Source: Escherichia phage AV108. Taken from it: 64,000 nt of DNA. The stretch lies in the sequence record OR352938.1. The stretch is one strand, 5' to 3'. Below, in pieces: positions 11,371 to 50,032 of the stretch. The first letter of the stretch is position 1. Each line of letters starts with the position of its first letter. A program made the position numbers and the translations under genes. The notes under the pieces are model-generated. The model saw nothing but the letters and a program-made list of their open reading frames with translations. It did not search any database and was not told the origin of the DNA.

Positions 11371-11454
11371 TATAAGCCATTCCGAAAAACTCCGGTCGGG
11401 TGCAATACCCGACTTATCATAAACCTTATGACAGTGTAAAGTGTTAATTCCAAA

Positions 11455-11483
11455 GGGAAGACTCGAAAGGGTCTTCCCTTTTT
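11455..11483 (+). terminator. rho-independent terminator after gene 23
   Basis: GGGAAGAC-loop-GTCTTCCC stem followed by TTTTT, 85 nt after gene 23 stop. Confidence 0.75.
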
Positions 11484-11499
11484 GCGTATTATATCTCGT

Positions 11500-11507
11500 T
11501 ATAAATA
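11500..11507 (+). promoter_or_regulatory. T4-type late promoter (TATAAATA)
   Basis: Exact TATAAATA just after the gene 23 terminator, upstream of two small + ORFs. Confidence 0.4.
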
Positions 11508-11699
11508 AGGTTGCAAGCCTATATTCTATTGGGAGCGAAAATAGATACACACAACAAAGACAGGAAGATGCAGAACATCGGGGGTCGTGAGCCTAAAATC
11601 CGGTGGCTATGATATGTGTAATTGCTTTTGATGCTGGATTTATTAAAACACAACAAACAATTCCACCAATTTTCGTAGTAACTGCATGACAAAGGACCA

Positions 11700-11837
11700 A
11701 TGAATGAAATGAGCGTTCATGTTGATATTGGGTCGGATAGATTTGGTAGATATACAGATCTGGTGTATGTCGACCTTGTTATGGCATTCCAGCGTGACGC
11801 TAGCGGTAATTTTTGGTTTTGGTACGCTGTTCCCTGA
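11700..11837 (+). CDS. hypothetical small protein (45 aa)
   Basis: Short ORF with weak AAGGA RBS close to ATG; below ORF-track size cutoff. Confidence 0.2.
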   Translation: MNEMSVHVDIGSDRFGRYTDLVYVDLVMAFQRDASGNFWFWYAVP

Positions 11838-12032: not shown

Positions 12033-12060
12033 GGAATCCTTCGGATTCCTTTTTCTTTTT
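12033..12060 (+). terminator. rho-independent terminator
   Basis: GGAATCC-TTCG-GGATTCC stem followed by a T-run. Confidence 0.7.
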
Positions 12061-12106: not shown

Positions 12107-13348
12107 ATGACTCATATTTTTACTGAACTGTTGCGGGAATCTACTTCCTCAGTAGCTAACCAGACAGCGCGACCGCAACTATTATCATTAACTCGCGCGG
12201 TAAACAACCTGATTTTCTCTGATCTGGTAGCAATCCAGCCAACGGATCAACCAGTATCCGCATTGTACGGCCTACGTTATCTTAATCATGATGGTCAGAT
12301 GACTTTCCGAACTTCTGCAACCTACGGTGGCGCGGTTGGTGATCGCACAGAGATTGAAGAGTTTTCAAAAGAAAAATCTTATGACGAAGGCGCACTATTC
12401 AAATCAGGCGATGTTGTATACGAAGTTGTGACCGCTGGTACAGTCGGTGAAGATGCCGCAACTCCAGAAGCTGCGATCTTTAAAGGCGTAATGACAAACA
12501 AAATTCGTTTCTATAGCGATTGTGCATCGGTAGAATACTTTGAAGATAAAAACACCGAAATTGCGTCTACCTCTATGCAGTTTGACAAGTGGCAAGTTAA
12601 TGTAGGTTCTCGTAAACTGAAAACCTCGTTCACCACTGAATTAATGCAGGATCTTGAGGCAAGCCAAATCAACTCTGAAAACTCTGTAATTGATCTTCTG
12701 GCTACTGTTGCTTCCGAAGAGATCAACAAAGATATTATTCAGAAGTTGATCACTGTATCATCTCGCTATAAAATTAAAGGGATCACCCCTGATGGCGTAC
12801 TTTCTCTCGTTAGCGTTCAGGATGCACCAACACAAGCGCGTGAACTTTACCGCTATGCTTGCGAGATGAGCAATCAAATGTTGCGGACTTCCTCCTTTGC
12901 TGGTACATACGTTTTGGCGTCTTCTCGCGTGGTTGGCCTCCTGCAATCTTCCGGTTGGATGGAAGAAACCGACAATGCTCTAAGCGAAGGTCGTCTGCGT
13001 TGCGGTCTGGAAGTGTACGCAGACACGACAACACCTTTCGATTATATGCTCGTTGGTTGTAAGCACATGATCGGTGATATGGAGAGTGTAGGTTCTCTGT
13101 TCTACTCCCCATATACAGAAGCCGACGGCGCTGGCGCGTATAAGAGCGTAATTGACCCTAATAGCTTCCAGCATCATGTAGCTATTATGAATCGTTATTC
13201 ACTCTCTGTCAACCCATACACATCAAAAGTTGATCAGGAAGAACACCAGGTCATCAAGGGTGACGATTGGGGTAAAATGGCTGGACGTTCAGAAATGTCC
13301 TACATTTTAGGAATCGAACTGCCACCGCTTGAGATTGACAACGCTTAA
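12107..13348 (+). CDS. 24: head vertex protein (T4 gp24-like, gp23 paralog)
   Basis: ORF track starts at TTG 12059; ATG at 12107 with AGGA RBS gives 413 aa beginning MTHIFTELLREST, resembling the T4 gp24 N-terminus. Confidence 0.85.
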   Translation: MTHIFTELLRESTSSVANQTARPQLLSLTRAVNNLIFSDLVAIQPTDQPVSALYGLRYLNHDGQMTFRTSATYGGAVGDRTEIEEFSKEKSYDEGALFKSGDVVYEVVTAGTVGEDAATPEAAIFKGVMTNKIRFYSDCASVEYFEDKNTEIASTSMQFDKWQVNVGSRKLKTSFTTELMQDLEASQINSENSVIDLLATVASEEINKDIIQKLITVSSRYKIKGITPDGVLSLVSVQDAPTQARELYRYACEMSNQMLRTSSFAGTYVLASSRVVGLLQSSGWMEETDNALSEGRLRCGLEVYADTTTPFDYMLVGCKHMIGDMESVGSLFYSPYTEADGAGAYKSVIDPNSFQHHVAIMNRYSLSVNPYTSKVDQEEHQVIKGDDWGKMAGRSEMSYILGIELPPLEIDNA

Positions 13349-13936
13349 CTAAATATCTAACCAAGACAAGTCAGATCCGCCCAAGATTTTTTCGACGGCG
13401 GATCTATTTTCTTGATGATATAAGTTAAAACATGGTATCCCATGTCTACGGGCAACATAAACAGCAATTCGAGTTCCTCCCGAAACGATTCCATTAACTT
13501 CTTTCGCCCAGAATATCACACAATCTACAGGATCATCAAGTGTCTCACCTAAGACTTGAGCAACATTTCTAGAAAACAGATTTTGCATGTATAACGGTAT
13601 AGAACGAGGATTATCATAAACGTGTTCTAATTCATCCATCGCCAGATTTTTTTGTTCTAAGGTTTGCCATGCAATCACATCATGACCGTTATGCTTGTGG
13701 TCATAAAACTTCCAATTTGGAATGAAAATTTTTCTATAATCTGGATCGTAATACTTCATGAAAGCATTGTCCATACCGTAAGCCCCTCCAGAATGCGCTA
13801 CAACGCGATTTTCTGACAATACCCTCCCAATGGTACTAGCCATTATCAAAATGTCGCTAGGCGCTTTTCTAGAGCCGATTAAAGCACATCTACGAAGTGG
13901 TTTTACTCCAAATAGATCTTGTAACTGGTCAAACAT
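13349..13936 (-). CDS. SLOG/DprA-like Rossmann-fold protein (putative)
   Basis: 195 aa; GSRKAP...SGGAYGMD and ...VSGGTRIAVYVARRHGIPCF resemble DprA/Smf-LOG motifs; occupies the T4 rnlB position. Confidence 0.45.
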   Translation of the reverse strand: MFDQLQDLFGVKPLRRCALIGSRKAPSDILIMASTIGRVLSENRVVAHSGGAYGMDNAFMKYYDPDYRKIFIPNWKFYDHKHNGHDVIAWQTLEQKNLAMDELEHVYDNPRSIPLYMQNLFSRNVAQVLGETLDDPVDCVIFWAKEVNGIVSGGTRIAVYVARRHGIPCFNLYHQENRSAVEKILGGSDLSWLDI

Positions 13937-14090
13937 AATATTTCCTCCATAGAAAGCAATATCATACTACAAGTTAATAACAAATACAAGTATCCGCGTA
14001 GCGGAAGCGAGCACAGCGAGCAATAAAAACACTTCCAGTAATTGATTAATAAATGTTCGAAACAAATTTTTATTATTCTATAAGATAAGT

Positions 14091-14115
14091 CTTCGTTTTG
14101 ATCATAATTTAATCA
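14091..14115. repeat. direct repeat copy 1 (CTTCGTTTTGATCATAATTTAATCA)
   Basis: 25-bp exact repeat in the 414-bp non-coding region; second copy at 14240-14264; contains GATC. Confidence 0.8.
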
Positions 14116-14239
14116 TACATGTAAAAACTACACAAAAGGATATCGCTTCGCGAACTCCTACGGAGTATAACATTTGTGTTACAATATGTAGTGATTAATA
14201 ATTAACCAAAGATACATTTTCTATGTTCTAAAGATCTTT

Positions 14240-14264
14240 CTTCGTTTTGATCATAATTTAATCA
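14240..14264. repeat. direct repeat copy 2 (CTTCGTTTTGATCATAATTTAATCA)
   Basis: Identical to 14091-14115; flanks also similar. Confidence 0.8.
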
Positions 14265-14318
14265 AACAGTATTAATATTGTGCACATGTAAACTAAAATT
14301 ATGTTAATAACAGATACA

Positions 14319-14343
14319 AAAAAGCCGCCCCAAAGGACGGCTA
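14319..14343 (-). terminator. rho-independent terminator (minus strand)
   Basis: Minus-strand RNA forms AGCCGUCC / GGGCGGCU stem followed by U6; lies after the 14351-14788 gene stop. Confidence 0.6.
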
Positions 14344-14350
14344 ATGTTAA

Positions 14351-14788
14351 TTATTTGTTGATAACGATCTGATTTCGGCGAATGGTAACATTACTCTTAG
14401 AGATGATCAGATCATCCGGCACTACGTTAGTTTTGTATGGTTGGAAGCGAACAAGCATCTGATTGCGTTTAGACCCTTCCTTAATCTTGATTTCCATCTG
14501 GATATTGTTGCCCACGTGAGCAACCGCAATTTCACCTTTATTCTCATAGACCCACTTGCTGGTAACGTCTCCAGCAAAAGCCTTAATAACTTGCAATGCT
14601 TCGTCGTATGCGGTAGAGCTGTGAACTTTCAGAAGGCCAGCCGTAGCAAGACGTGAGCAGGTGATCGCCGGAGATTGCCAAACATCAACATTAATTTGCT
14701 CAATCAGAGTAACACCGCCCTGATCAACTGCTTTGAATGCTTCGAACATTGCCTTTTTCATTGCTACGTGGTTTTTACGGAATTTCAT
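14351..14788 (-). CDS. hypothetical protein (145 aa)
   Basis: ORF with ATG start; no recognised motif. Confidence 0.55.
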   Translation of the reverse strand: MKFRKNHVAMKKAMFEAFKAVDQGGVTLIEQINVDVWQSPAITCSRLATAGLLKVHSSTAYDEALQVIKAFAGDVTSKWVYENKGEIAVAHVGNNIQMEIKIKEGSKRNQMLVRFQPYKTNVVPDDLIISKSNVTIRRNQIVINK

Positions 14789-14834
14789 AATTAGTCACCT
14801 CTATTGATTAGTTATTCAGAATATTAATTACAAA

Positions 14835-15218
14835 TCAGGACATTGCCCGTTTGAATGCGTCCATTATAACAGTGTTATTTGGCTTGTCAACACGTTTTTG
14901 GACTTTATTTTTAATTTTTTTGTTGATGTGGTGTTTACGATAAACAACCTTTTCACGGTTGGCGTAAGCCTCGCGTGCGTCTTTTACCATCAACCATGCC
15001 TTAGCCGCATCTTGTCCGCTGATCCCGCCAATCTTCTTAGCAATATCAACAAAATTAAGACCGTGGTCTTCGCGTAGCATGTAAACCATTAACGCTGTTT
15101 TCTTGTCCATCACTTCGCCCCATTGACGATTAACAGGATAGTGATCAGCACCGGAAACTGGATCATTATAGTGCCAATAAACCGGATAAATGCATTTTCT
15201 GACTTCCACACATGACAT
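14835..15218 (-). CDS. hypothetical protein with possible HTH (127 aa)
   Basis: ORF with ATG start; helix-turn-helix-like stretch and basic C-terminus; own sigma70-like promoter upstream. Confidence 0.5.
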   Translation of the reverse strand: MSCVEVRKCIYPVYWHYNDPVSGADHYPVNRQWGEVMDKKTALMVYMLREDHGLNFVDIAKKIGGISGQDAAKAWLMVKDAREAYANREKVVYRKHHINKKIKNKVQKRVDKPNNTVIMDAFKRAMS

Positions 15219-31708: not shown

Positions 31709-31921
31709 TTATAATGCACCATCGAGCAATTGCTCTAAGGTGTATCCTGAATAGTCTTTTTCAATCAGGGTATATTTTCCTACTCGTTTAATCCAGCCAC
31801 GCATTTCAACGTATTCTTCGTAGTTGATGGTGCGAGTTGTTCCATCTTCCAGTAATGCAGTACCGATTTCGTTAATGCGGTCATAAGTTACGTCGGTAAT
31901 GATGATTTCGATGTTAGCCAT
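31709..31921 (-). CDS. hypothetical protein (70 aa)
   Basis: ORF with ATG and GGAG RBS; own promoter upstream. Confidence 0.5.
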   Translation of the reverse strand: MANIEIIITDVTYDRINEIGTALLEDGTTRTINYEEYVEMRGWIKRVGKYTLIEKDYSGYTLEQLLDGAL

Positions 31922-31957
31922 TTGATACTCCTTAGTAGTTCGTTTCGGTATGGGTGT

Positions 31958-31986
31958 ATTATGATATACACCATCTGTTATGTCAA
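31958..31986 (-). promoter_or_regulatory. sigma70-like early promoter (TTGACA-17-CATAAT)
   Basis: Minus-strand -35 TTGACA and -10 CATAAT upstream of 31709-31921. Confidence 0.5.
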
Positions 31987-31992
31987 CAACTT

Positions 31993-32172
31993 TTAGAACA
32001 TTTTTGAAATTAATTCTGCTTTGATTTCGCAGAGAACATCTAAAGATTTCTCGTCACCCGCTTTTGCTGCTTCTGCTTGCATTTTTGAAATGGCTTCAAT
32101 GTCAGTGCAATTATAAGCCGCTTGAACTTTAGCTATTGCGATGATTGCCGATTCGATGGTTAAGTGTTTCAT
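31993..32172 (-). CDS. hypothetical small protein (59 aa)
   Basis: ORF with GGAGAA RBS; below track cutoff. Confidence 0.4.
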   Translation of the reverse strand: MKHLTIESAIIAIAKVQAAYNCTDIEAISKMQAEAAKAGDEKSLDVLCEIKAELISKMF

Positions 32173-32204
32173 GTTTGATTCTCCTTTCGTTTCGGTATGT
32201 GTGC

Positions 32205-32234
32205 ATTATAGGGGATCACCGATCCCCCTGTCAA
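32205..32234 (-). promoter_or_regulatory. sigma70-like early promoter with palindromic spacer (PeSL-type)
   Basis: TTGACA - GGGGGATCGGTGATCCCC - TATAAT on minus strand; spacer is an inverted repeat with two GATC. Confidence 0.65.
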
Positions 32235-32241
32235 CAATTTT

Positions 32242-32760
32242 TTAGTTATTTTTTAATTGCTCATCTTGCAATAGGGCAATCACATGCTGGCGATGTTCTT
32301 CCGATTGAGGCACACCGAAAAAGTTTGTTTTGTAGAAATACTCTAATCGGTCTTCTCGTGTGCTCTCTTCCATCATGATCGCGGGTAGTCCGAGATTTCG
32401 GAAACGTCGCTTTTCTGCTGGCGTAAAATCACTGTAATACAACATAGAATCATCATTACAAGCAATGCTAAACTCATCCTTCATAAAGGAGAATATTGCG
32501 TTTAAACGCTGTTTACCGTCCACGATTTCGATCTCATAGCGAGAGCCATCATCAATCTTAGCCATTGCGATAGCACCAACCGGAAAATCATTAATCAGGT
32601 TTTCGATAAACATACGTTTGTTTTCGGTGTCCCATACTAAAGGACGCTGATAATCTGGGTTCATGTTGATATAGCCATCTTCTAACCATGCATCATAAAC
32701 AGAGATGACAAAGTTTTTAGTATTGGTATAGTAACGGCGTTTAGGCGTTAAACGGTTCAT
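32242..32760 (-). CDS. DUF262 / ParB-like nucleotide-binding domain protein
   Basis: 172 aa from ATG 32760 (AGGAG RBS); PDYQRPLVW and IVDGKQRLNAIF match the DUF262 (GmrS-like) signature. Confidence 0.6.
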   Translation of the reverse strand: MNRLTPKRRYYTNTKNFVISVYDAWLEDGYINMNPDYQRPLVWDTENKRMFIENLINDFPVGAIAMAKIDDGSRYEIEIVDGKQRLNAIFSFMKDEFSIACNDDSMLYYSDFTPAEKRRFRNLGLPAIMMEESTREDRLEYFYKTNFFGVPQSEEHRQHVIALLQDEQLKNN

Positions 32761-32761
32761 G

Positions 32762-33094
32762 TTATAGTCTCCTGAATGGATCATCACGTAAATCAATATC
32801 TTTTAAGAACTCAACCCATGAATGCCGGATATTGTTCTTAATTCTCCAGATAAGCGCAGGGATTGAACGCTCTCCCATCTGGAAGTATGGATCATATGAT
32901 CCGTATGCCCAATATGCTACTACAATTCCACAATCAGCGCAATAGTATTCTATTTCACTTGCTGGCGACCAAAGTCCATCAATATGATCGGTGATCTTGC
33001 TTTCGATGTTATGGCTATGACAATCAGGGCAACGGATGCAATGACCTTGTTTATCGTAATTTGACGTTAGCGAATACTTAAACAATCTCATCAT
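32762..33094 (-). CDS. Cys-rich zinc-ribbon-like protein
   Basis: 110 aa with CIRCPDC...CADCG; start overlaps the MTase-like gene stop as ATGA. Confidence 0.55.
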   Translation of the reverse strand: MMRLFKYSLTSNYDKQGHCIRCPDCHSHNIESKITDHIDGLWSPASEIEYYCADCGIVVAYWAYGSYDPYFQMGERSIPALIWRIKNNIRHSWVEFLKDIDLRDDPFRRL

Positions 33095-33807
33095 AGATCC
33101 TTATTGGCTTCAAATACTGCCTTTGCGAATCCTCGCGGGGTAAGTGACCTTATAGTCTTTGTTTTCGTTCCTTTCCCGCCTAGCTTAGAATGCTGTTTAC
33201 TGTACCCTTTATTAATCTGCAACGGTTTCTTTTCTGGCATTATAAAGCCTTGTCCGGTCCATAAGCAAGTCTTTTTCGGGTACATATCACGGGCGGCGAT
33301 ATACTCAGGAAAAGTAGGATGTTTATCATCTTCCGGCAAATAACCGCCATATTCCCACGGATGGAACATGTAATCAGGCTTACGCCACATACTAGAGATA
33401 ACGCTTACAGGATTCTCTATCATGTAGGGAACTCCTAGCCATTCACCCAAATAAGCGGTTATTTTAGCTGCCCTTACATCATGAACTTGAATCAATGGTC
33501 CTTGTTCTAGTTTCTTTCGTTCAAAGTGCGCAGCGCCACTAACAGCTAAATTGGTGCACGGTGGGAATGCAAAGATAATATCCGGTTTCCCCCATTCAAG
33601 GTCCATTGCTCTTTCCAGCCAATTCAAATCAATCCATGTGTTTACATAGGTAATGTTTGGATGTTCAAATCTGGTATTATACTTTTTGTATGTACCGTGG
33701 TCGGCGTCATCCGCATTAAAGCAGACTACCTTATGACCTGCTTTAGCCCATTCTAGCCCCATTATCCCCGATCCGTCAAAGTTGCAGAATATTAATTTTT
33801 GTTTCAT
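33091..33807 (-). CDS. minimal C5-cytosine methyltransferase-like protein
   Basis: 238 aa; motif I-like FCNFDGSG, motif IV-like FPPC..LAVSGA, motif VI-like ENP, C-terminal RSLTPRG; no room for a normal target-recognition domain. Confidence 0.55.
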   Translation of the reverse strand: MKQKLIFCNFDGSGIMGLEWAKAGHKVVCFNADDADHGTYKKYNTRFEHPNITYVNTWIDLNWLERAMDLEWGKPDIIFAFPPCTNLAVSGAAHFERKKLEQGPLIQVHDVRAAKITAYLGEWLGVPYMIENPVSVISSMWRKPDYMFHPWEYGGYLPEDDKHPTFPEYIAARDMYPKKTCLWTGQGFIMPEKKPLQINKGYSKQHSKLGGKGTKTKTIRSLTPRGFAKAVFEANKDL

Positions 33808-34049
33808 ATACGACCCTTTAACCCAGCACAGATTTTAGTCGGTTCTTTACCGTGCCACATTAAGTAAAGTCCGTTAATGCGACCTTGTTTTGTGTGTGAT
33901 TCTTTTCTGATCTTCTTATAGTGTCGTGCTTCCTCAACTGATTGTTTAGAATACCAATCATAAAGGAAGAGGCACAAAGGCCAACCATTAGCGGCCTTAA
34001 TGCAGTTATTAAGAAATTCCTTATTGCGTTTAATTAATTTTCTTTTCAC
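33804..34049 (-). CDS. hypothetical basic protein (81 aa)
   Basis: GTG start overlapping upstream stop (GTGA); coupled to MTase-like gene (ATGA). Confidence 0.45.
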   Translation of the reverse strand: MKRKLIKRNKEFLNNCIKAANGWPLCLFLYDWYSKQSVEEARHYKKIRKESHTKQGRINGLYLMWHGKEPTKICAGLKGRI

Positions 34050-34297
34050 GCTGCCCCCATTGGTTTGATAGTAACAGAATCTAAAAGACCTTTGTTAGCC
34101 AGTTCTCGGCAAGTTTTCAGATCCGCAACTTCCCAGCCAGCCGCAATCAGGTTATCAATCAGGCTGTTAGCAACTTCTTCGCTCATGAAAGAGCACTGTT
34201 TGCCGATGGTGTAGCGCACACGCTGTAATTTCAGTTTACGGAAGCCTTTAACGTTCAGGTCTTTAGCGATTTTCTTTGCGGTTTCGATGTTAACCAT
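34046..34297 (-). CDS. hypothetical protein (83 aa), first gene of coupled operon
   Basis: ATG with GGAGAA RBS directly downstream of a PeSL-type promoter. Confidence 0.5.
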   Translation of the reverse strand: MVNIETAKKIAKDLNVKGFRKLKLQRVRYTIGKQCSFMSEEVANSLIDNLIAAGWEVADLKTCRELANKGLLDSVTIKPMGAA

Positions 34298-34337
34298 TGT
34301 TTGATTCTCCTAAGTGGTATCTCGTCTTGATGGTTGT

Positions 34338-34366
34338 ATTGTAGGGGAGTTATCCTCCCCTGTCAA
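34338..34366 (-). promoter_or_regulatory. sigma70-like early promoter with palindromic spacer (PeSL-type)
   Basis: TTGACA - GGGGAGGATAACTCCCC - TACAAT on minus strand. Confidence 0.6.
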
Positions 34367-34380
34367 CACTTTTTATAAAA

Positions 34381-34548
34381 TTATTTGTTAATTTCTGGTG
34401 CGTTGCTAGGATAGTAACCTTCTTTAACTCCGAGGTATTTCGCAACCATCCCTACAATCTTCTGTGCTACTACAATGTCAAATTTAAGATAATCTTCGCC
34501 GTGGGTTTCAATGATATATGCTTCACATGCTGCTTTAGTCTCGAACAT
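34381..34548 (-). CDS. hypothetical small protein (55 aa), paralog of 37663-37830
   Basis: Almost identical at protein level to the 37663-37830 ORF (EAYI...HGEDYLKFDIVVAQKI.GMVAKYLGVKEGYYPSNAPEINK). Confidence 0.5.
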   Translation of the reverse strand: MFETKAACEAYIIETHGEDYLKFDIVVAQKIVGMVAKYLGVKEGYYPSNAPEINK

Positions 34549-34581
34549 TTTGATTCTCCTATTTAGTTTCGTTATGTGTGC

Positions 34582-34610
34582 ATTATAGGGGATCTCCCGA
34601 TCCCCGTCAA
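34582..34610 (-). promoter_or_regulatory. sigma70-like early promoter with palindromic spacer (PeSL-type)
   Basis: TTGACG - GGGATCGGGAGATCCCC - TATAAT on minus strand. Confidence 0.6.
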
Positions 34611-34624
34611 CAACTTTTTTAAAA

Positions 34625-34906
34625 TTATTCGTGATTAGTTTCGATGTTGTGTATTTTGCACCAGTTCAGCCAATCGCCAAGATCCTGATAGTTGATGCTT
34701 TTATCTGCTGCCATCGTTTTTGTCTTGATACCCATATGTGCGTTATGGGTAAGCATTTTTACAGTGAACTCAATTTTATCGCCTTTAGCTTTAACATCAA
34801 CCAGTTTGGTCCACTGGCTACCAGCGCCTCGAATGTTCATACCAACGATGTTTCCGATGTATGCTTCTTTGTTTTTCAGGATTTCGGTTGCTTTGATGAA
34901 TTTCAT
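34625..34906 (-). CDS. hypothetical protein (93 aa)
   Basis: ORF with GGAGAA RBS downstream of promoter 34940-34968. Confidence 0.5.
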   Translation of the reverse strand: MKFIKATEILKNKEAYIGNIVGMNIRGAGSQWTKLVDVKAKGDKIEFTVKMLTHNAHMGIKTKTMAADKSINYQDLGDWLNWCKIHNIETNHE

Positions 34907-34939
34907 TTTTGATTCTCCAGTTCGTTTCGGTATGGGTGT

Positions 34940-34968
34940 ATTATGCTATGTTCTTACTTTGGTGTCAA
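34940..34968 (-). promoter_or_regulatory. sigma70-like early promoter (TTGACA-17-CATAAT)
   Basis: Minus-strand -35/-10 pair upstream of 34625-34906. Confidence 0.55.
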
Positions 34969-34976
34969 CAACTTTT

Positions 34977-35246
34977 TTAGATATTTTCAGAAATAAATTT
35001 TAAAACTTGACGTAAATGTTTCTCATCTTTGATAGTCGCCGGAAGTTCTTCTTTTACTTCCTGTGCAAGATAGATATTTCCGTTCCAAGTGAAAGATCCG
35101 TCTTCGTTTACGCGATAGCTGAACATCCACTCGCAATCATTTTCGATTTCATATACACACAGAAGGGTGTAATCGTTAAAGCTATTGATTTCAAGGTCGA
35201 AGCCGTGACGTTTTGCAAAGTTGGTAGTGGTTTTAGTCAGCGCCAT
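34977..35246 (-). CDS. hypothetical protein (89 aa)
   Basis: ORF with GGAGAA RBS downstream of promoter 35287-35315. Confidence 0.5.
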   Translation of the reverse strand: MALTKTTTNFAKRHGFDLEINSFNDYTLLCVYEIENDCEWMFSYRVNEDGSFTWNGNIYLAQEVKEELPATIKDEKHLRQVLKFISENI

Positions 35247-35286
35247 TGTTTGATTCTCCTAAGTGGTATCTCGTTTCGATGGGTGT

Positions 35287-35315
35287 ATTATGCTATAGGC
35301 GTGATCTGGTGTCAA
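35287..35315 (-). promoter_or_regulatory. sigma70-like early promoter (TTGACA-17-CATAAT)
   Basis: Minus-strand -35/-10 pair. Confidence 0.55.
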
Positions 35316-35340
35316 CAACTTTTTTAATTTTTTGGAAATA

Positions 35341-35363
35341 AAAAAGCCGACACTAAGGTCGGC
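35341..35363 (-). terminator. rho-independent terminator (GCCGAC-loop-GTCGGC)
   Basis: Hairpin with minus-strand U5, after the 35372-35680 gene. Confidence 0.6.
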
Positions 35364-35371
35364 TAATAAAA

Positions 35372-35680
35372 TCATTTAGACAAATAATCATTCAGTGCAA
35401 TCCGGTCGGCGTATGCTGGTGTTACGTCAATCGCAATCACTTTAACGCGTGCTTTCTTGCGACCTGGGTTTTCTCGTAACCAGTGCTCATGACCGTGAAC
35501 ATTTTTATACTTTGATGCTTCTTCAAATGTACGGATCGGACCTGGATAATCTGCGTAAAGGATCTCTAGGTCTTCGGTGATGTAAAAATATACATCATAA
35601 TTACTGTTCTCTAGTTTAAGCAGAGACTTTCTGAACATTGGGAGATTTTCGCGGGTAAATTCAAAGATATTATCTTTCAT
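35372..35680 (-). CDS. small early protein, HxHW paralog family member 1
   Basis: 102 aa; C-terminal HGHEHWL...VIAIDV shared with five neighbouring ORFs. Confidence 0.55.
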   Translation of the reverse strand: MKDNIFEFTRENLPMFRKSLLKLENSNYDVYFYITEDLEILYADYPGPIRTFEEASKYKNVHGHEHWLRENPGRKKARVKVIAIDVTPAYADRIALNDYLSK

Positions 35681-35704
35681 AGTATTATCCTCAATAGTTT
35701 GATG

Positions 35705-35728
35705 AAAAGGGGTGGGGCTTAACGCCCC
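35705..35728 (-). terminator. rho-independent terminator (GGGGC-TTAAC-GCCCC)
   Basis: Same hairpin as at 31688; minus-strand U-run follows. Confidence 0.55.
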
Positions 35729-35733
35729 GTATA

Positions 35734-36021
35734 TTAAAACAGTCCTTCCTGTACACCGTAGTAGAGTTCATCGCTGATAATTTCATTAATGCGACGGTGT
35801 GCATATTCCTGATTTGCGAAGTTATCAGCAAGTTCTACTTTAGTTTCGCCGTCATGAGTCCATTTAGTGATAACTTTACCATCTGCAAATTTGAAGTTGA
35901 ACTCTTTAGCTACTGCATCACGTACCAGACGTGCGAACTTGTTGTTACGGATTGCATTATCGGTTTCGTGTGCAGCGTGAGCGAATTTATTAACTTTCAG
36001 AGTGATAGTAATGTATGCCAT
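35734..36021 (-). CDS. hypothetical protein (95 aa)
   Basis: ORF with GGAGAA RBS downstream of promoter 36068-36096. Confidence 0.5.
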   Translation of the reverse strand: MAYITITLKVNKFAHAAHETDNAIRNNKFARLVRDAVAKEFNFKFADGKVITKWTHDGETKVELADNFANQEYAHRRINEIISDELYYGVQEGLF

Positions 36022-36067
36022 AAGTTGATTCTCCTAGTTAGAAAGTGTATCTCGTTTCGATGGGTGT

Positions 36068-36096
36068 ATTATGCTATACACCCGATCTTATGTCAA
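36068..36096 (-). promoter_or_regulatory. sigma70-like early promoter (TTGACA-17-CATAAT)
   Basis: Minus-strand -35/-10 pair. Confidence 0.55.
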
Positions 36097-36102
36097 CACT
36101 TT

Positions 36103-36381
36103 TTATAAAATAATTTTTTGATATTTTTCTATGATGTTTGTGTAGGTCACGTCAACCGCTAGCACCGTTGCTTCGAATCCACCGTTTAACCAATGGCTAT
36201 GATCATGATCGTGAAAGAAACCTAGACCAGTACGAAGACCTTCTTTATATTCGGAGCGTACATTTAGATCATCATCGATAAACAGATAAAACCATGAATT
36301 TTTACTAGGATTGATGATACAACCTTTCAGATTAGGGAGAATATCACGACTAAGAATAAACTTATCACCTACTTTGAGCAT
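36103..36381 (-). CDS. small early protein, HxHW paralog family member 2
   Basis: 92 aa from ATG 36381 (GAGG RBS); HDHDHSHWL...VLAVDV. Confidence 0.5.
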   Translation of the reverse strand: MLKVGDKFILSRDILPNLKGCIINPSKNSWFYLFIDDDLNVRSEYKEGLRTGLGFFHDHDHSHWLNGGFEATVLAVDVTYTNIIEKYQKIIL

Positions 36382-36404
36382 AATATTTTCCTCACTTATA
36401 AAGT

Positions 36405-36704
36405 TTAACTGTTGTTTTTCTCGTAATGCTGAATGCGTGCTTGATCTGCTTCCGCTGGTGATAGATTCCATGCAACCACTACAACTTCTGACGCATCGTC
36501 ATCCGTTTTTGATACCCAATGATTGTGATTCATACAGTTATTTGCTATCGAGTGAGCAAATGATTTCATCACTGGAGACGTATAATCATAGTAACGGATT
36601 TTCAGATTTTCATCAACGTACAAATAGATCGTATAAGGTTTATATTCAGTAACCAGTAACAGACAGTTACGCAATTCTGGGAAAATCTTTTTAGTTAATT
36701 TCAT
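36405..36704 (-). CDS. small early protein, HxHW paralog family member 3
   Basis: 99 aa from ATG 36704 (GAGGA RBS); NHNHWV...VVVVAW. Confidence 0.5.
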   Translation of the reverse strand: MKLTKKIFPELRNCLLLVTEYKPYTIYLYVDENLKIRYYDYTSPVMKSFAHSIANNCMNHNHWVSKTDDDASEVVVVAWNLSPAEADQARIQHYEKNNS

Positions 36705-36705
36705 T

Positions 36706-36924
36706 TTATAATCCTCGGTCGCGGCTATAGTACACGGTACGCCATACAATTTCATGTTTCGTGTCGCTCCAGCACACGATCTCATTTACTCTTAAATCTT
36801 TGTTATCAACAAAAGATGAACATTGTGACGCTTCTTTCATCATTTTATCTGCTGTTTTCTCATCAAATACAGCACAGATTTCTTTATACACTCGATAATC
36901 TTTGAATTGACTCTGGATACCCAT
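36706..36924 (-). CDS. hypothetical small protein, paralog of 36884-37147
   Basis: Shares FK.Y..Y.......F.EKMM..AS.C.SF pattern with the adjacent ORF; start codon uncertain. Confidence 0.4.
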   Translation of the reverse strand: MGIQSQFKDYRVYKEICAVFDEKTADKMMKEASQCSSFVDNKDLRVNEIVCWSDTKHEIVWRTVYYSRDRGL

Positions 36925-37147
36925 AATTAACACCATTCCAACCAATTGTTTTTGAGAAAACGTTTATCCACTGTTGAGTGTAGCATGTTTCTTTCCATGA
37001 TACAATACGAGTAGAATAATGGTTTTTGTTTCCAGAAAAGGACGGGCATTTTGATGCATCTTCCATCATCTTTTCGGCGAACTCTGGTGCGTATACTCGC
37101 AGGATCTGTTGATATGCTTTGTATTCTTTAAATTTGCTCATAATCAT
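36884..37147 (-). CDS. hypothetical small protein, paralog of 36706-36924
   Basis: 87 aa; overlaps neighbours at both ends; boundaries uncertain. Confidence 0.4.
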   Translation of the reverse strand: MIMSKFKEYKAYQQILRVYAPEFAEKMMEDASKCPSFSGNKNHYSTRIVSWKETCYTQQWINVFSKTIGWNGVNYGYPESIQRLSSV

Positions 37148-37406
37148 TCACTACCTTATCAGCTTCTTTTGTTGTTTTTACATCAACTGCGATAACTCGT
37201 AAAGGTTCGTCATGGTTCCACCAGTGGTCATGAATATCAGCTTGTGATTTATCACCAAAGGAATCACGAATATCATTTTTACATTTATAGCTAATGTGAC
37301 CTTCATAGTCAACATAAAGGTAATTATCGAAAATCGGCGTTTTTAAGATCATACCGAAAAATCTTTCTTTGTGTGTCTTATCCAGCGTTGCAGTAATTCG
37401 CATCAT
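37128..37406 (-). CDS. small early protein, HxHW paralog family member 4
   Basis: 92 aa; IHDHWW...VIAVDV. Confidence 0.5.
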   Translation of the reverse strand: MMRITATLDKTHKERFFGMILKTPIFDNYLYVDYEGHISYKCKNDIRDSFGDKSQADIHDHWWNHDEPLRVIAVDVKTTKEADKVVNDYEQI

Positions 37407-37418
37407 AATATATTCCTC

Positions 37419-37598
37419 TTAGAAAGGGATGGTCATTTCTTGAGCTTGTACATTCTCGTTAGGATTAAACTTCATCCAACCGATATTGTCTACCAGCATA
37501 TGCACATTTTTATCATATCCTACGTGGGTAGTCAATACTGTATGTGCTTTACCTTCAATGATGAGTTCCATGTACTTCTGAACTTCGATAGCTTTCAT
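37419..37598 (-). CDS. hypothetical small protein (59 aa)
   Basis: ORF with GGAGAA RBS downstream of promoter 37631-37659. Confidence 0.4.
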   Translation of the reverse strand: MKAIEVQKYMELIIEGKAHTVLTTHVGYDKNVHMLVDNIGWMKFNPNENVQAQEMTIPF

Positions 37599-37630
37599 TT
37601 TGATTCTCCGTTTGTTGTCTTGATGGGAGT

Positions 37631-37659
37631 ATCTTACTACTCCCTTTAATCATTGTCAA
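37631..37659 (-). promoter_or_regulatory. sigma70-like early promoter with palindromic spacer (weaker -10)
   Basis: TTGACA then GGGAGTAGTAAGATACTCCC palindrome with TAAGAT as -10. Confidence 0.4.
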
Positions 37660-37662
37660 CTA

Positions 37663-37830
37663 TTATTTGTTAATTTCTGGTGCGTTGCTCGGATAGTAAC
37701 CTTCTTTAACACCAAGATATTTTGCAACCATTCCGGTGATCTTCTGTGCTACTACGATATCGAATTTCAGGTAGTCTTCACCGTGGTTTGCTACAATGTA
37801 CGCTTCGCATTCTGCTTTAGTCTGGAACAT
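37663..37830 (-). CDS. hypothetical small protein (55 aa), paralog of 34381-34548
   Basis: ATG at 37830; about 85 percent nucleotide identity to the 34381-34548 copy by eye. Confidence 0.5.
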   Translation of the reverse strand: MFQTKAECEAYIVANHGEDYLKFDIVVAQKITGMVAKYLGVKEGYYPSNAPEINK

Positions 37831-37864
37831 TTTTGATTCTCCTATATCTCGTTGGTATGTGTGC

Positions 37865-37893
37865 ATTATAGGGGATCGGTGATCCCCTGTCAA
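37865..37893 (-). promoter_or_regulatory. sigma70-like early promoter with palindromic spacer (PeSL-type)
   Basis: TTGACA - GGGGATCACCGATCCCC - TATAAT on minus strand. Confidence 0.65.
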
Positions 37894-37898
37894 CAACT

Positions 37899-38192
37899 TT
37901 ATAATGCTTTATATGCGTATTTCATAAATTTGTCTGCCACTTCATTGGCATGTTCAGATTCTACGCCTGATTCGAGAACAATAGCTAGGTCGGTTTCGTC
38001 ATTCCCGCCGTACCAATGATTTGATGTTCGATTTTTTTCAATTGGAAATTGGTCACTTTTATCTGTGCGACAAAATACATCTAAATGCTCGTCGATGTAA
38101 AAGATCCAATCTTCATAAAGAATAACGGTATTAGCAAGATTTTTATTGCCTTCAACGAAAGGTTCGGCTACAAACAAATTAGTATGTTCCAT
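37899..38192 (-). CDS. small early protein, HxHW paralog family member 5 (divergent)
   Basis: 97 aa from ATG 38192 (GAGG RBS); SNHWYGG...AIVLE. Confidence 0.45.
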   Translation of the reverse strand: MEHTNLFVAEPFVEGNKNLANTVILYEDWIFYIDEHLDVFCRTDKSDQFPIEKNRTSNHWYGGNDETDLAIVLESGVESEHANEVADKFMKYAYKAL

Positions 38193-38208
38193 AGTATTTT
38201 CCTCAAAA

Positions 38209-38400
38209 TTATACAGCTTCGTAAACTTCCCAATGTCCAACACCAGCACGCTTAACGAAAAGGTTTTCTTTGATGTTATTCATAAACGTCTGGATGGATT
38301 TAATGCGATTTGAAGGTTTCCAGTCTTCGTTGGCATTGCGTCGATACATCATAACATTACCAGTTCGCTTATATTCAGCAACCATTTTAAGACCACACAT
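38209..38400 (-). CDS. hypothetical protein (63 aa)
   Basis: ORF in compact minus-strand array. Confidence 0.35.
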   Translation of the reverse strand: MCGLKMVAEYKRTGNVMMYRRNANEDWKPSNRIKSIQTFMNNIKENLFVKRAGVGHWEVYEAV

Positions 38401-38457
38401 AATATTATCCTCAATTTGTGGGAGAGTATTACCCCTCCCAATGATTGTTATGTTATA

Positions 38458-38778
38458 TCACACAAAATGGCGTGTCAATGCTTCTTTTGCGGTTCCGCTA
38501 AGACTTTCGATCTCTCCTGGCATAACATCAACCGCCAGAACTTCTACAACATCCTCGGACCCTAACCAGTGAGTATGACCTTTGTAGAACTTAATAACCA
38601 GACTACCTTCCTCGTCCCATTTAACGCTATCGCTAGCCCACCACACATCACCGTCGATAAAGTTGATGTAAAGCACACTACGCCACATTGAATTAATTAC
38701 TTTCAATACTGCGCCTTTCATCTCTTCCACGGTATGGTCTTCCATTTTGAAGACCTCACCTACCTGAACTTTTGCCAT
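38458..38778 (-). CDS. small early protein, HxHW paralog family member 6
   Basis: 106 aa; GHTHWL...VLAVDV. Confidence 0.5.
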   Translation of the reverse strand: MAKVQVGEVFKMEDHTVEEMKGAVLKVINSMWRSVLYINFIDGDVWWASDSVKWDEEGSLVIKFYKGHTHWLGSEDVVEVLAVDVMPGEIESLSGTAKEALTRHFV

Positions 38779-38795
38779 TTAGTCACCTCTCTTTA

Positions 38796-38975
38796 TTACA
38801 TAACAATCACGCCAGCCGTTGAAAGTTGATGTTTCAACTGAGCATTTTCTGCTACCGTCAAATCAATGATTTCTTGTGACGCTGCAATCATATAGCCATT
38901 GGTGATATTGTTTTGCATCAGTTCAATGGTTTCTTCGTTGTAGCGGATTTTAGCGATGATTTCGTTGAAGTTCAT
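38796..38975 (-). CDS. hypothetical small protein (59 aa)
   Basis: ORF with GGAGAA RBS downstream of promoter 39010-39038. Confidence 0.4.
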   Translation of the reverse strand: MNFNEIIAKIRYNEETIELMQNNITNGYMIAASQEIIDLTVAENAQLKHQLSTAGVIVM

Positions 38976-39009
38976 AATTGATTCTCCTAGTTCGTTTCGG
39001 TATGTGTGT

Positions 39010-39038
39010 AGTATAGGGGATCACCGATCCCCTGTCAA
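39010..39038 (-). promoter_or_regulatory. sigma70-like early promoter with palindromic spacer (PeSL-type)
   Basis: TTGACA - GGGGATCGGTGATCCCC - TATACT on minus strand. Confidence 0.6.
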
Positions 39039-39050
39039 CAACTTTTTGAA

Positions 39051-39527
39051 TTATTTTTCTTGATGCTCGCGATCGTACTTTTCGAAATAAAATTCTACTG
39101 GCTGGTCGTGGATTGACAGCAAGCCAAAGCGTTTAGCCGCTCGCAATCCCATATTGCGCTGAATGTACTTCTGGAAGTTCTCGCGTATACACTTACGCCA
39201 GGATTCTAAGCCCATGCAGCTTTTATAAAGATTGCATTGCACACATGCCGGATTCATGTTATCAAGTATATCATGCTCCGGTTTATGCATTCCTACAACC
39301 TTATACTTCCACGATCCATCATCATTACGGGCAATTCGTCCATTTTCATCATAGACAACCTTTGAGCGTCGTAATACTGGTTTGATATGGTCTGCGTGCC
39401 AGCGATCCCCTAGTTCCTCGCCACAATAGGCACAACGTCCACCGTATTTCATTTTCAGGATCTGACGTTGCTCTTTCTTTGACAATTTTTTAGGTTTAGG
39501 GGCTTTCGCCCCTTCATTATCACACAT
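39051..39527 (-). CDS. HNH endonuclease
   Basis: CAYCG...HADHIKP...N...CVQCN fits the HNH Cys/His signature; start overlaps ligase stop by 8 nt; true start may be an internal Met. Confidence 0.65.
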   Translation of the reverse strand: MCDNEGAKAPKPKKLSKKEQRQILKMKYGGRCAYCGEELGDRWHADHIKPVLRRSKVVYDENGRIARNDDGSWKYKVVGMHKPEHDILDNMNPACVQCNLYKSCMGLESWRKCIRENFQKYIQRNMGLRAAKRFGLLSIHDQPVEFYFEKYDREHQEK

Positions 39528-47121: not shown

Positions 47122-47340
47122 TTACTTGTTGTATTCATTCCACCATTGGGTGAGCTTATCAATTATTTTTGTGTTTCTATCCAACTTATCCCACCGTTTT
47201 CGAGGGTTTATCAACCGTAATAGGTAAGGTGTACTTGTTAAGTGAACTCGGTCAATATAGTGATTGATGTACTGTTTTTCGATTCTAAGTTTCATCTTTT
47301 TACGATGAAAATATGCAATGACTTGTTCTTCTGTTTCCAT
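47122..47340 (-). CDS. hypothetical protein (72 aa)
   Basis: ATG at 47340 with GGAGG RBS (track start 47394 lies inside the promoter). Confidence 0.45.
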   Translation of the reverse strand: METEEQVIAYFHRKKMKLRIEKQYINHYIDRVHLTSTPYLLRLINPRKRWDKLDRNTKIIDKLTQWWNEYNK

Positions 47341-47362
47341 ATGTTCCTCCGTTTCGATGTGT

Positions 47363-47391
47363 ATTATGCTATGGCAAGATCCGATTGTCAA
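47363..47391 (-). promoter_or_regulatory. sigma70-like early promoter (TTGACA-17-CATAAT)
   Basis: Minus-strand -35/-10 pair. Confidence 0.55.
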
Positions 47392-47438
47392 CACCCAATA
47401 ACAAAAAAGTCGCCACTATGGGCGACTTTGAACAAACA

Positions 47439-47915
47439 TTAATCATGACCGTGATTTGCAATGTCCGCTCGCGTCTTATCTTTGTGATTTCCTACGTCAA
47501 AGACACGATAACCATTTTCACGCAAAACTTTAATCACTTCTGGGTTATCCTCAAAGACTCCGACAACTTCATCTTTATCAAAGGATTTAATTACCTCTAA
47601 TTTGATGTGATAGTCTTTACGGGAATCGGTACGGCCTCTCATAAAGATTTTATCAAAACACACCCCGTTAGAAATTAACCAATCAATTGTTTCCATGTAA
47701 GCATGTGAACTTCGTCCGGTGAGGATGTAAATCAAATGCCCGTTGTCGGAAAGAGCATTAATAACACGAATTACATCGTAAATGGGGGAATCTCCCCCAC
47801 ATGCCTTGTTATATTCGATCCATGACTCGACTTTATCAAGATTTTCGGTTGGCATCTTTGCTAGTCGATGTGTTGGATCTGTGATCGTAAAATCTAAATC
47901 GACAAAATATATCAT
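47439..47915 (-). CDS. HAD-superfamily hydrolase (putative nucleotidase/phosphatase)
   Basis: N-terminal VDLDFTIT (DxDxT) motif; 158 aa. Confidence 0.5.
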   Translation of the reverse strand: MIYFVDLDFTITDPTHRLAKMPTENLDKVESWIEYNKACGGDSPIYDVIRVINALSDNGHLIYILTGRSSHAYMETIDWLISNGVCFDKIFMRGRTDSRKDYHIKLEVIKSFDKDEVVGVFEDNPEVIKVLRENGYRVFDVGNHKDKTRADIANHGHD

Positions 47916-49753: not shown

Positions 49754-49823
49754 TATTTATCAGGTATCCAGAAGAAGGATTAATTCACCTCACCATTATC
49801 CTACAACCTCAAAACATTTATCA

Positions 49824-49964
49824 TCAGGAAGAATCGCCCATTCTACAACCGTATTCATCCTCGACGTAGTAGCAAGTCCCATCATGTCGAGCATCATATT
49901 CATCACCAACAACAAAGCTATCAGCTAGCTCAAAATCTACAGCAACACATTTTAATTTGGTCAT
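49824..49964 (-). CDS. hypothetical small protein (46 aa)
   Basis: ATG 49964 with GAGG RBS, downstream of promoter 49996-50024. Confidence 0.35.
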   Translation of the reverse strand: MTKLKCVAVDFELADSFVVGDEYDARHDGTCYYVEDEYGCRMGDSS

Positions 49965-49995
49965 AATAAAATCCTCACTTGTTTTTGATGGTTGT

Positions 49996-50024: not shown

Positions 50025-50032
50025 CACTTATT

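Follow-up and report, generated by a model that had tools for sequence, protein, structure and literature searches.

A constrained and portable family of non-coding modules shared by Krischvirus phages and Escherichia coli prophages

The DNA considered here is a stretch of 64,000 nucleotides from Escherichia phage AV108 (sequence record OR352938.1), referred to as the window, which consists of Krischvirus DNA (the RB49/Phi1/JSE group); over its positions 13300-14850, identity to phage Phi1 reaches 99.8%, and 58 phage records are at least 95% identical in the same interval. An intergenic gap of 414 bp lies at positions 13937-14350; it has a G+C content of 29.7%, as against 40.5% for the whole window, is the biggest intergenic gap within 50 kb of the Phi1 annotation and is flanked by two minus-strand genes, open reading frame (ORF) 165 upstream and ORF164 downstream. 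T4-like genomes are nearly gap-free, and conserved non-coding DNA within them is rare and usually functional. The gap contains two copies of a non-coding module, and the evidence set out below establishes that this module belongs to a family that is both constrained and portable. Read in the direction of the two flanking genes, the locus comprises the following features:

14351-14788, minus strand: upstream gene, Phi1 ORF165, 145 amino acids (aa), found only in Krischvirus
14323-14342, minus strand: T1, intrinsic terminator of ORF165, with an 8-bp stem, a UUUG loop and a U-tract
14303-14319: box GTTAATAACAGATACAA, repeated at 13973-13989
14269-14322: fast-evolving spacer, 35% of its sites variable
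14192-14268: unit B, a 77-bp imperfect inverted repeat, 22% G+C, TGATTAA...TTAATCA
14240-14264: second copy of the 25-mer, forming the conserved 3' arm of unit B, with the dyad TTGAT-N9-ATCAA at 14247-14265
14155-14165: module B, mini-hairpin X, a GNA triloop reading CTCC-GTA-GGAG on the minus strand and CTCC-TAC-GGAG on the plus strand
14144-14152: module B, mini-hairpin Y, reading CGC-GAA-GCG on the minus strand (with the canonical GCGAAGC) and CGC-TTC-GCG on the plus strand, followed by a T-rich tail
14043-14119: unit A, a 77-bp imperfect inverted repeat, 19.5% G+C
14091-14115: first copy of the 25-mer, forming the conserved 3' arm of unit A, with the half-sites TTGAT and ATCA within 14098-14115
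13993-14005: mini-hairpin X of module A, TCCGC-GTA-GCGGA on the plus strand, containing GCGTAGC; weak terminator score on the minus strand, with a T-rich tail
13961-13989, minus strand: candidate weak sigma-70-type promoter for ORF164, TTGTAT-17-TATGAT, 8/12, recognized by eye and below the scan threshold
13934-13948, minus strand: Shine-Dalgarno sequence GGAGG (13948-13944) and ATG (13936-13934) of ORF164
13349-13936, minus strand: downstream gene, Phi1 ORF164, 195 aa, DprA-like

On the minus strand the order runs from the ORF165 stop codon through T1, the fast spacer, unit B and two mini-hairpins with a T-rich tail to unit A, and from there through one mini-hairpin with a T-rich tail, the promoter-like site and GGAGG to the ATG of ORF164. 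Beyond ORF164, gene 24 lies on the plus strand and ends at 13348.

The exact 25-mer CTTCGTTTTGATCATAATTTAATCA occurs at 14091-14115 and 14240-14264, 149 bp apart, and contains GATC and the palindrome TGATCA. No further match with three or fewer mismatches is found in the 64-kb window, and none arises in 100 shuffles. The A+T-rich gap, the exact repeat and its palindromic core had been reported in a preliminary description of this DNA, correctly as to both sequence and position, together with a similarity of the repeat flanks; this similarity reaches well past the 25-mer, over 38 nt at 89% and over 77 nt (14043-14119 and 14192-14268, that is, units A and B) at 78%. The module as delimited here consists of a ~75-bp imperfect palindrome (~20% G+C) and one or two G+C mini-hairpins, measures roughly 110-150 bp and is non-coding. 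The most conserved parts of the unit are a central AAAGAT..TCTTCG box and a 19-bp dyad, TTGRT-N9-AYCAA, within the 25-mer, while the mini-hairpins stand at the low-coordinate side of the units and each presents a C-GNA-G triloop on one strand (GCGTAGC, GCGAAGC and CCGTAGG). An iteron or tandem array of at least three regular repeats is absent from the gap, which holds two copies only, 149 bp apart; iterons proper are confined to the prophage island described below.

Two further elements of the preliminary description concern the limits and the coding status of the gap, and both hold. The minus-strand terminator at the end of the gap is T1, which reads AGCCGTCCTTTGGGGCGGCT followed by TTTTTT (14342-14323), has six G-C pairs in its stem and lies 8 nt past the ORF165 stop codon. 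With a G+C-rich stem-loop and a U-tract after a stop codon, it has the makeup of a Rho-independent terminator, and it is independently predicted by TransTerm in RB49, under the label 'ORF164c<--ORF165c', and by ARNOLD in other records. No conserved ORF is present in the gap: the sole ORF of at least 25 aa that lies wholly inside it (13967-14065, minus strand) starts with TTG, lacks a Shine-Dalgarno sequence and, in 11 of the 15 aligned genomes, is interrupted at 14025 by an indel of 1 nt. This ORF would specify 32 hydrophobic residues (MFRTFINQLLEVFLLLAVLASATRILVFVINL) and is entered as a coding sequence in some records (Delraymugoa, SSG23). In UPWr_E1, a 1-nt insertion at 13940 makes the annotators' ORF164 43 codons longer, into the gap. 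Both the 13967-14065 coding sequence and the UPWr_E1 extension are probably annotation artefacts.

The whole gap is present at 95% identity or more in 58 of 58 Krischvirus records, and the gene content of the locus does not change across them. Variability within the gap was expressed as the fraction of variable sites per segment across 15 aligned Krischvirus genomes. In the flanking genes, 18.9% and 24.0% of third-codon positions and 4-6% of first-codon positions are variable; in comparison, units A and B are 6.5% variable each, the two mini-hairpins between the units are variable at 0 of 22 sites, the ORF164 leader at 5.4%, and the gap spacers at 17-35%. The units differ from third-codon positions with p = 2e-5, and units plus hairpins differ from the spacers with p = 9e-8 (Fisher tests). 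Because the units and mini-hairpins are far less variable than third-codon sites and spacers, the element is under constraint, and the purifying selection that acts on units and mini-hairpins, and not on the rest of the gap, is clear. The comparison with related phages that the preliminary description had named as a check thus finds the gap both universal in the genus and selected. A hypervariable patch lies at 14298-14318, just downstream of T1 on the minus strand, where G2248 carries a near-wholly different 15-nt block and several genomes carry indels of 1-2 nt; in contrast, the 43-nt blocks 14134-14176 and 14207-14249 are invariant.

These figures bear directly on the possibility that the gap is the decaying remnant of a lost gene, or a neutral spacer with a recent tandem duplication. 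Its placement in a plastic region between non-T4 genes, the fast evolution of some of its spacers and the short ORFs annotated in some records would all suit such an origin. Nevertheless, the variability of units and hairpins is three to four times below that of third-codon positions, related copies exist at two other loci and in prophages, and the annotated ORF is frameshifted in most genomes, so that this explanation is strongly disfavored and should be considered highly improbable.

The preliminary description had treated the repeat as an isolated pair. Two copies are indeed present here, but they form part of a wider family, as a unit profile search of the Phi1 genome recovers exactly four copies (E values of 1e-13 to 1e-17) before the next-best match at E ~1:

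62502-62588 of Phi1: copy C, between gene 3 (minus strand) and ORF130 (plus strand)
98864-98948 of Phi1: copy A
99011-99095 of Phi1: copy B
150010-149920 of Phi1: copy D, between genes 35 and 36, ~1.2 kb past the right end of the window

The three module loci are all among the six largest intergenic gaps of the Phi1 genome, and both the number of copies, four, and their positions are fixed across the 58 Krischvirus genomes. Outside the genus, an unannotated homologue of both units (~76 bp, ~80% identical) is found in 53 of 5,426 complete E. coli genomes, where it lies in a prophage inserted in hicB, within a 1.27-kb island without any annotated gene. A back-search with this prophage island yields additional matching sites in every Krischvirus record. 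In IMG/VR, a degenerate core pattern detects two Krischvirus genomes with four copies each and ~24 prophage-like contigs, and the same pattern detects 14 metagenome stretches of the same two kinds, Krischvirus and prophage. No match to the family was found among plasmids, in the phage collection outside Krischvirus, or in GTDB species representatives, in which three matches to a relaxed pattern lack the palindrome and are due to chance. As far as the searched literature shows, the module has not been described, as neither the papers on promoter-early stem-loops (PeSLs; PMC2839356, PMC4122927) nor the 2006 comparative paper on RB49 mentions it.

The relationships among the copies clarify the exactness of the 25-mer. 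The 3' arm is the best-conserved part of the whole family, being identical at 26 of 27 positions between A and B, at 24 of 27 between A and the prophage copy, and at 25 of 27 between B and the prophage copy. In the 5' and central part, unit B is nearer to copy D (30/38) than to unit A (17/38), from which it follows that B is no simple recent copy of A; the 25-mer as the trace of a recent duplication of the whole unit is rejected on the same ground. The identity over 25 bp derives mainly from family-wide conservation of the 3' arm, to which gene conversion or homogenization between A and B may have added.

A family of repeated palindromes could, in principle, be a selfish or neutral mobile repeat, either similar to miniature inverted-repeat transposable elements or spread by recombination, which is tolerated without any function for the phage. 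The imperfect terminal inverted repeats TGATTAA...TTAATCA, the presence of several copies per genome, the occurrence in two unrelated phage lineages that exchange DNA, and an association with insertion points of homing endonucleases all agree with such a view. The last point rests on a 150-kb Krischvirus contig of IMG/VR in which the precise junction of the last mini-hairpin of module C with the late promoter of gene 3 is occupied by an inserted HNH-AP2 gene. This homing-endonuclease gene (contig L033, 2148-2681; 177 aa; equivalent to Phi1 ~62482) has its own TTGACA-17-TAGATT promoter. The same contig is without the ORF130.1 endonuclease that Phi1 has on the other side of module C, and two different mobile endonuclease genes therefore flank module C in different genomes. 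On the other hand, copies A-D show no target-site duplication and have no transposase nearby, four copies remain at fixed positions in 58 genomes under clear purifying selection, and the family was not found in GTDB species representatives. A purely selfish element is thus regarded as improbable.

Exchange of DNA between the two lineages is documented independently of the module. An LprI-family gene of the prophage matches Phi1 ORF262 over 420 bp at 94.8%, beginning at the ATG (L018 1325-1744; Phi1 158277-158696, outside the window), which indicates a recent exchange of a gene fragment between a lytic T4-like phage and a temperate prophage. Since this segment is shared apart from the module, Krischvirus and the prophage lineage do exchange DNA. 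A further 67 bp at 84% lie just past both 3' ends of the two genes, and the upstream regions are unrelated.

The copies share an architecture as well as a sequence. Every copy is preceded by G+C mini-hairpins, which read GTCGC-TT(T/C)-GCGAC and GTGCC-GTA-GGCAC in copies C and D, and CCC-TTC-GGG and GCAACC-TTC-GGTTGC in the prophage, where the other strand reads CCGAAGG; prophage variants with an unrelated left flank have a G+C hairpin there all the same. In the direction of the gene, A, C and D agree both in their orientation towards the downstream gene and in their order, namely unit, mini-hairpins, a TTGT..GTTAA-like box, promoter, Shine-Dalgarno sequence and ATG, and the last hairpin of each of these three copies scores as terminator-like in that direction. 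Just past the hairpins stand late-type promoter motifs, AATAAATA for gene 3 at copy C and TATAAATA for gene 36 at copy D. The phage modules always lie between transcription units, and only 14 nt separate the terminator from unit D.

The mini-hairpins belong to a restricted structural class. C-G-closed GNA triloops alone form extraordinarily stable DNA mini-hairpins, and natural examples are known from the primase origins of G4, St-1 and alpha3, from ssiA of RSF1010 (CCGAAGG) and from the hairpin promoters of N4 (PMC13037366). In Phi1, 21 C-GNA-G triloop hairpins with a stem of at least 4 bp are found, as against 13.5±3.7 expected, and 6 of the 21 fall within the 0.5% of the genome that the three module gaps represent (Poisson p ~1e-9 to 1e-10, a value that overstates independence because the copies are homologous). 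When folded as DNA, the mini-hairpin pairs are exceptional, with z scores of -2.5 to -4.1. The longest GNA-triloop hairpin of the genome, GGAATCC-GAA-GGATTCC on the minus strand, with a 7-bp stem, lies at ~12033-12049 (Phi1 96861-96877), between ORF162 and gene 24, and coincides with a plus-strand terminator predicted in RB49.

Pairing within the units was assessed on 24 distinct copies, among which the Krischvirus copies are at least 95% identical, so that the power to detect covariation is low. The long inverted repeat is kept in register, with 68% of cells paired as against 35-52% when the arms are slid, and two of its pairs are changed on both sides. A C·A mismatch in unit B is mended on opposite arms, by 14206 C>T in four aligned genomes and by 14250 A>G in G2248 and PHB13. 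The 19-bp dyad TTGRT-N9-AYCAA stands out, with 94% of cells paired in register as against 2-59% when slid and with one pair running from A-T through G-T to G-C; it is the best-supported symmetric feature of the family.

On the basis of the observed family with its anatomy, copy number and location, of the purifying selection, and of its occurrence in a prophage lineage known to exchange DNA with Krischvirus, it is proposed, as a possible and tentatively preferred interpretation, that the gap holds a tandem pair of a portable boundary module that acts at the DNA level, is recognized by a protein, and sits between a terminator and the next promoter. Protein binding, an insulator role and a mode of spread are what this proposal adds. 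The module would act in cis and mostly as DNA; a dimeric DNA-binding protein present in E. coli cells, for which the nucleoid protein Fis is the best candidate, would bind the dyad, while the hairpins and their tails would halt residual read-through and thereby insulate or modulate the next promoter. The promoter so served would be the weak sigma-70-like one of the DprA-like gene at the present locus and the late promoter at genes 3 and 36, and the module would spread or be exchanged by recombination, as has been proposed for PeSLs. The portability of the module is supported by the HNH-AP2 insertion at the edge of module C, by prophage variants whose unrelated left flank starts at the unit edge, and by the 420 bp that the two lineages have in common elsewhere. 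Conservation at three fixed loci throughout the genus, combined with the occurrence in an unrelated temperate phage of the same host, suggests either that a host factor recognizes the module or that the module is a portable cis-acting device.

The candidacy of Fis derives from the 25-mer core GATCATAATTTAATC, which in copies A, B and D fits 12 of the 13 positions that the Fis consensus GNTYAAAWTTTRANC specifies (PMC6907758); those positions of the core that never vary (G.T.AT..TTTAA.C) fall on the informative positions of Fis sites. The resemblance of the dyad to a Fis site is suggestive and the match is not significant; the dyad is also longer than the 15-bp Fis core. Among other host regulators that were considered, FNR (TTGAT-N4-ATCAA) has the same half-sites but was rejected because these are N9 apart here, and IHF (WATCAANNNNTTR) gave partial matches only.

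Several observations weigh against a protein-recognized boundary module. Copy C and the prophage copies match the Fis consensus at only 10-11 of 13 positions, and a relaxed Fis-like pattern matches only the two 25-mer sites in the 64 kb (0.3 expected), which are one duplicated sequence and were recognized post hoc. A tblastx comparison of 232 kb of prophage loci with Phi1, which could have revealed a shared binding protein, returned only the LprI/ORF262 segment and a tail-fibre-like fragment. The rule on orientation rests on three loci and is not significant; moreover, it applies to Krischvirus only, as the prophage unit is oriented oppositely relative to its nearest gene. No terminator is needed at copy C, whose neighboring genes diverge, and a weak A+T-rich hairpin and mini-hairpins of 4-5 bp make poor terminators in any case. 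As single-stranded DNA, the 75-nt hairpin has z scores of -0.35 to -1.7 and is not more stable than shuffled sequences, which leaves the case for a structural role of the long palindrome weak. Finally, T4-type late promoters are not known to require upstream sites. Searches of Pfam and PHROGs with the neighbors of the module were uninformative.

An alternative at the level of RNA is that the module encodes an independent small RNA, or that it serves as a processing or stability element in the 3' untranslated regions of read-through transcripts or in leaders. The 414-nt region folds better than its shuffles on both strands (z = -3.05 and -2.58, one per strand), several whole modules reach z scores of -2 to -3.5 within a range of -0.5 to -3.5 over both strands, and each module ends, in the direction of the gene, in a small G+C hairpin with a T-rich tail. 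The maintained register of the long hairpin, its two pairs changed on both sides, and a prophage variant that lacks the apical 18 nt of the unit and keeps both arms are also in keeping with a selected fold. However, the folds differ among the copies, RNAalifold provides no consensus for the units, wobble pairs favor no strand and occur in both orientations, and the GNA loops lie on differing strands among the copies. At permissive E values, the best matches to Rfam 15 for the gap and the prophage island score 15-24 bits, compared with gathering thresholds of 32-95, and ARAGORN finds no tRNA or tmRNA in the window; a tRNA-like cloverleaf tried by hand gave no consistent arms. Scans reveal no sigma-70 promoter and no TATAAATA late promoter beside the units, none was predicted there by Nolan et al., the spacers in which a promoter would sit evolve at neutral-like rates, and only 14 nt are available between the terminator and unit D. 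A structured RNA is consequently a rather unlikely explanation of the family.

The preliminary description had offered a protein-binding regulatory pair, a replication-related or packaging-related site, and a small RNA gene as possible roles. The small RNA gene is not borne out, given the lack of an Rfam match, of a conserved promoter and of a favored strand and the neutral-like spacers, and no evidence for a packaging role was encountered. The protein-binding pair and the replication site, in view of the conserved dyad in the sequence, both remain live. The inverted repeat within each unit, the accompanying G+C hairpins and the two further genomic copies are additions to that description.

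The main rival to the boundary module is a site for the initiation of replication or recombination, that is, an origin of RB49-type phages or a hot spot of recombination-dependent replication, which is considered unlikely. Under this model, the ~20% G+C unit would be an unwinding element, and the GNA mini-hairpins, which resist SSB, would mark or hold the single-stranded state for priming or helicase loading. The occurrence of such mini-hairpins at the primase origins of G4, St-1 and alpha3 and in ssiA of RSF1010, where the sequence CCGAAGG equals the prophage heptamer (PMC13037366), counts in its favor. In T4, the minimal oriF and oriG are ~100 bp long and combine a promoter with an A+T-rich unwinding element, and oriE, oriF and oriG are situated near strand-switch points in late-gene regions with no motif in common (PMC3016281). 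Modules C and A/B are likewise located at strand switches in late-gene regions, the three loci per genome are comparable in number to the set of active origins of T4, and RB49, which has neither MotA nor middle promoters (PMC1524935), must build its origins differently. The prophage unit, furthermore, lies in the 1.27-kb non-coding island next to ~eight AAACCTACACTA iterons.

This prophage island extends over L018 4926-6192 (E. coli H2 chromosome CP028733), with the iterons at L018 5490-5617, and also contains three copies of a periodic repeat of ~70 nt (TTnGAAAGGGATT..ATA) as well as numerous GNA-type mini-hairpins. It ends in the unit homologue, 117 bp upstream of a 155-aa ORF without a Pfam or PHROG match. 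The island could be an origin of the prophage, a cos or pac region, or a long structured leader.

Against an initiation site, no promoter is seen directed into the A+T-rich unit, as an origin that starts from an R-loop requires, and strong terminators stand upstream of copies B and D. The core is conserved beyond the needs of an unwinding element, given that those of T4 can be replaced by heterologous ones (PMC3016281); large gaps are expected at strand switches anyway; and no replication-protein signatures occur among the neighbors in the prophage loci, which were covered over ~10 kb around the unit. The comparison with T4 origins accordingly has two sides: size (~100 bp), an A+T-rich core, few copies per genome and a position in late-gene regions near strand switches are shared, whereas the unwinding elements of T4 are independent of sequence and its origins have no motif in common, and the module copies are homologous, with a conserved core and no promoter pointing inward, so that an origin role would be assigned by analogy. 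A more specific form of the proposal, in which the four-copy module is an origin or recombination-replication device of the MotA-less RB49-type phages that is shared, as a portable element, with a temperate E. coli phage in which it lies beside iterons, the palindrome serving as the unwinding element and the mini-hairpins as a landmark for the loading of a primosome or helicase, also relies on analogy and appears rather doubtful. If the module were an initiation site, it would offer the first handle on the origins of MotA-less T4-like phages.

In T4-like phages, gp61 primes at GTT/GCT, and no N4-type polymerase is encoded. The single-strand signals and N4 hairpin promoters built on GNA triloops resemble the module in having short G+C stems that close GAA or GTA triloops beside other hairpin-capable DNA, but their substrates are single-stranded genomes or plasmid strands, served by dedicated primases or polymerases (PMC13037366), and in the module the strand that bears the loop varies.

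The PeSLs are repeated cassettes already described in these same genomes. They were defined in Phi1 and RB49 as a near-consensus sigma-70 promoter combined with a stem-loop, with ~52 PeSLs per genome (PMC2839356), and the presence of the module in the same phage group raises the question of whether its copies are degenerate PeSLs. A superficial likeness consists in GTTTACA-like boxes, TATGAT, and CAAAACGAAG as compared with CGAAACGA of the PeSL leader. Nonetheless, a profile derived from 13 window PeSLs detects every one of these 13 (E values of 1e-12 to 1e-22) and has no match in the gap at E <=100; no minus-strand sigma-70 site of at least 9/12 is present in the gap, where would-be -35 and -10 elements are spaced by 13 and 31 nt; and in G2248 and PHB13 both copies carry a mutated form of the would-be -10 element (TATGAT in the repeat). 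Descent of the module from PeSLs is thereby essentially refuted.

The two kinds of cassette are nevertheless instructive to compare (PMC2839356; PMC4122927). Both are repeated, composite intergenic cassettes of ~100 bp in the same genomes, with stem-loops and A+T-rich DNA; both lie between a terminator function and the start of the next gene, and have a proposed exchange by recombination. The association of PeSLs with gene insertion or deletion may extend to the module, given the HNH-AP2 insertion and the missing ORF130.1 at module C, although the gene content of the A/B locus is invariant in 58 records. Unlike PeSLs, the module lacks both a near-consensus sigma-70 promoter and a G(n)-loop-C(n) stem between -35 and -10, its GNA stems of 4-5 bp not being associated with a -35/-10 pair. 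It exists in four copies, in contrast to ~50 PeSLs, and in late or conserved regions rather than hyperplastic early regions, and it differs further in being followed by late-type promoters at two loci, in its long A+T-rich inverted repeat, in its GNA mini-hairpins and in being shared with a temperate prophage. The window PeSLs (31900-39100 and 47300-56200, minus strand) have the extended consensus AAAAAGTTG-TTGACA-N17-(T/C)ATAAT-ACACCCAT(AC)CGAAACGA..AGGAGAATCAA-ATG, and because this consensus runs past the promoter, the conserved cassette takes in the transcribed leader together with its Shine-Dalgarno context.

Repeats of bacterial chromosomes provide another point of reference. REP/BIME and ERIC/IRU sequences are also short imperfect palindromes that are strictly intergenic, stand between transcription units and have been proposed to bind proteins, to stabilize transcripts and to act in recombination. 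They are, however, found on chromosomes in tens to hundreds of copies and are G+C-rich or longer, whereas the module is phage-borne, A+T-rich and limited to four copies. Should the module be a boundary or regulatory cassette, as tentatively preferred here, the idea of a 'mobile regulatory cassette' would be extended to late-gene regions and to phages of different lifestyles. Since therapy cocktails include Krischvirus phages, knowledge of their essential cis elements is also of value for engineering them.

With regard to the expression of the flanking genes, ORF165 is preceded by an early promoter with a perfect 12/12 sigma-70 match and an extended -10 (TTGACA-16-TGTTATAAT, with TATAAT; 14890-14863, minus strand). 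This promoter sits inside the 3' end of the gp24.3 coding sequence, is a weak match to the PeSL profile (E = 0.007) and corresponds to the RB49 early promoter Pe:98401 of Nolan et al., who predicted an early promoter upstream of ORF165 only and none in the gap. ORF164 lies behind a strong terminator with no early promoter predicted in the gap, and its own weak candidate promoter, which overlaps the repeated box at 13973-13989, is therefore most likely the source of its expression.

The second-largest gap of the window (11394-11700, 307 bp) follows gene 23 and has no match to the unit family. It carries a strong terminator (GGGAAGAC..GTCTTCCC, then TTTTT) and a TATAAATA late promoter at 11500, and ~190 bp without any assigned feature separate this promoter from ORF161.1.

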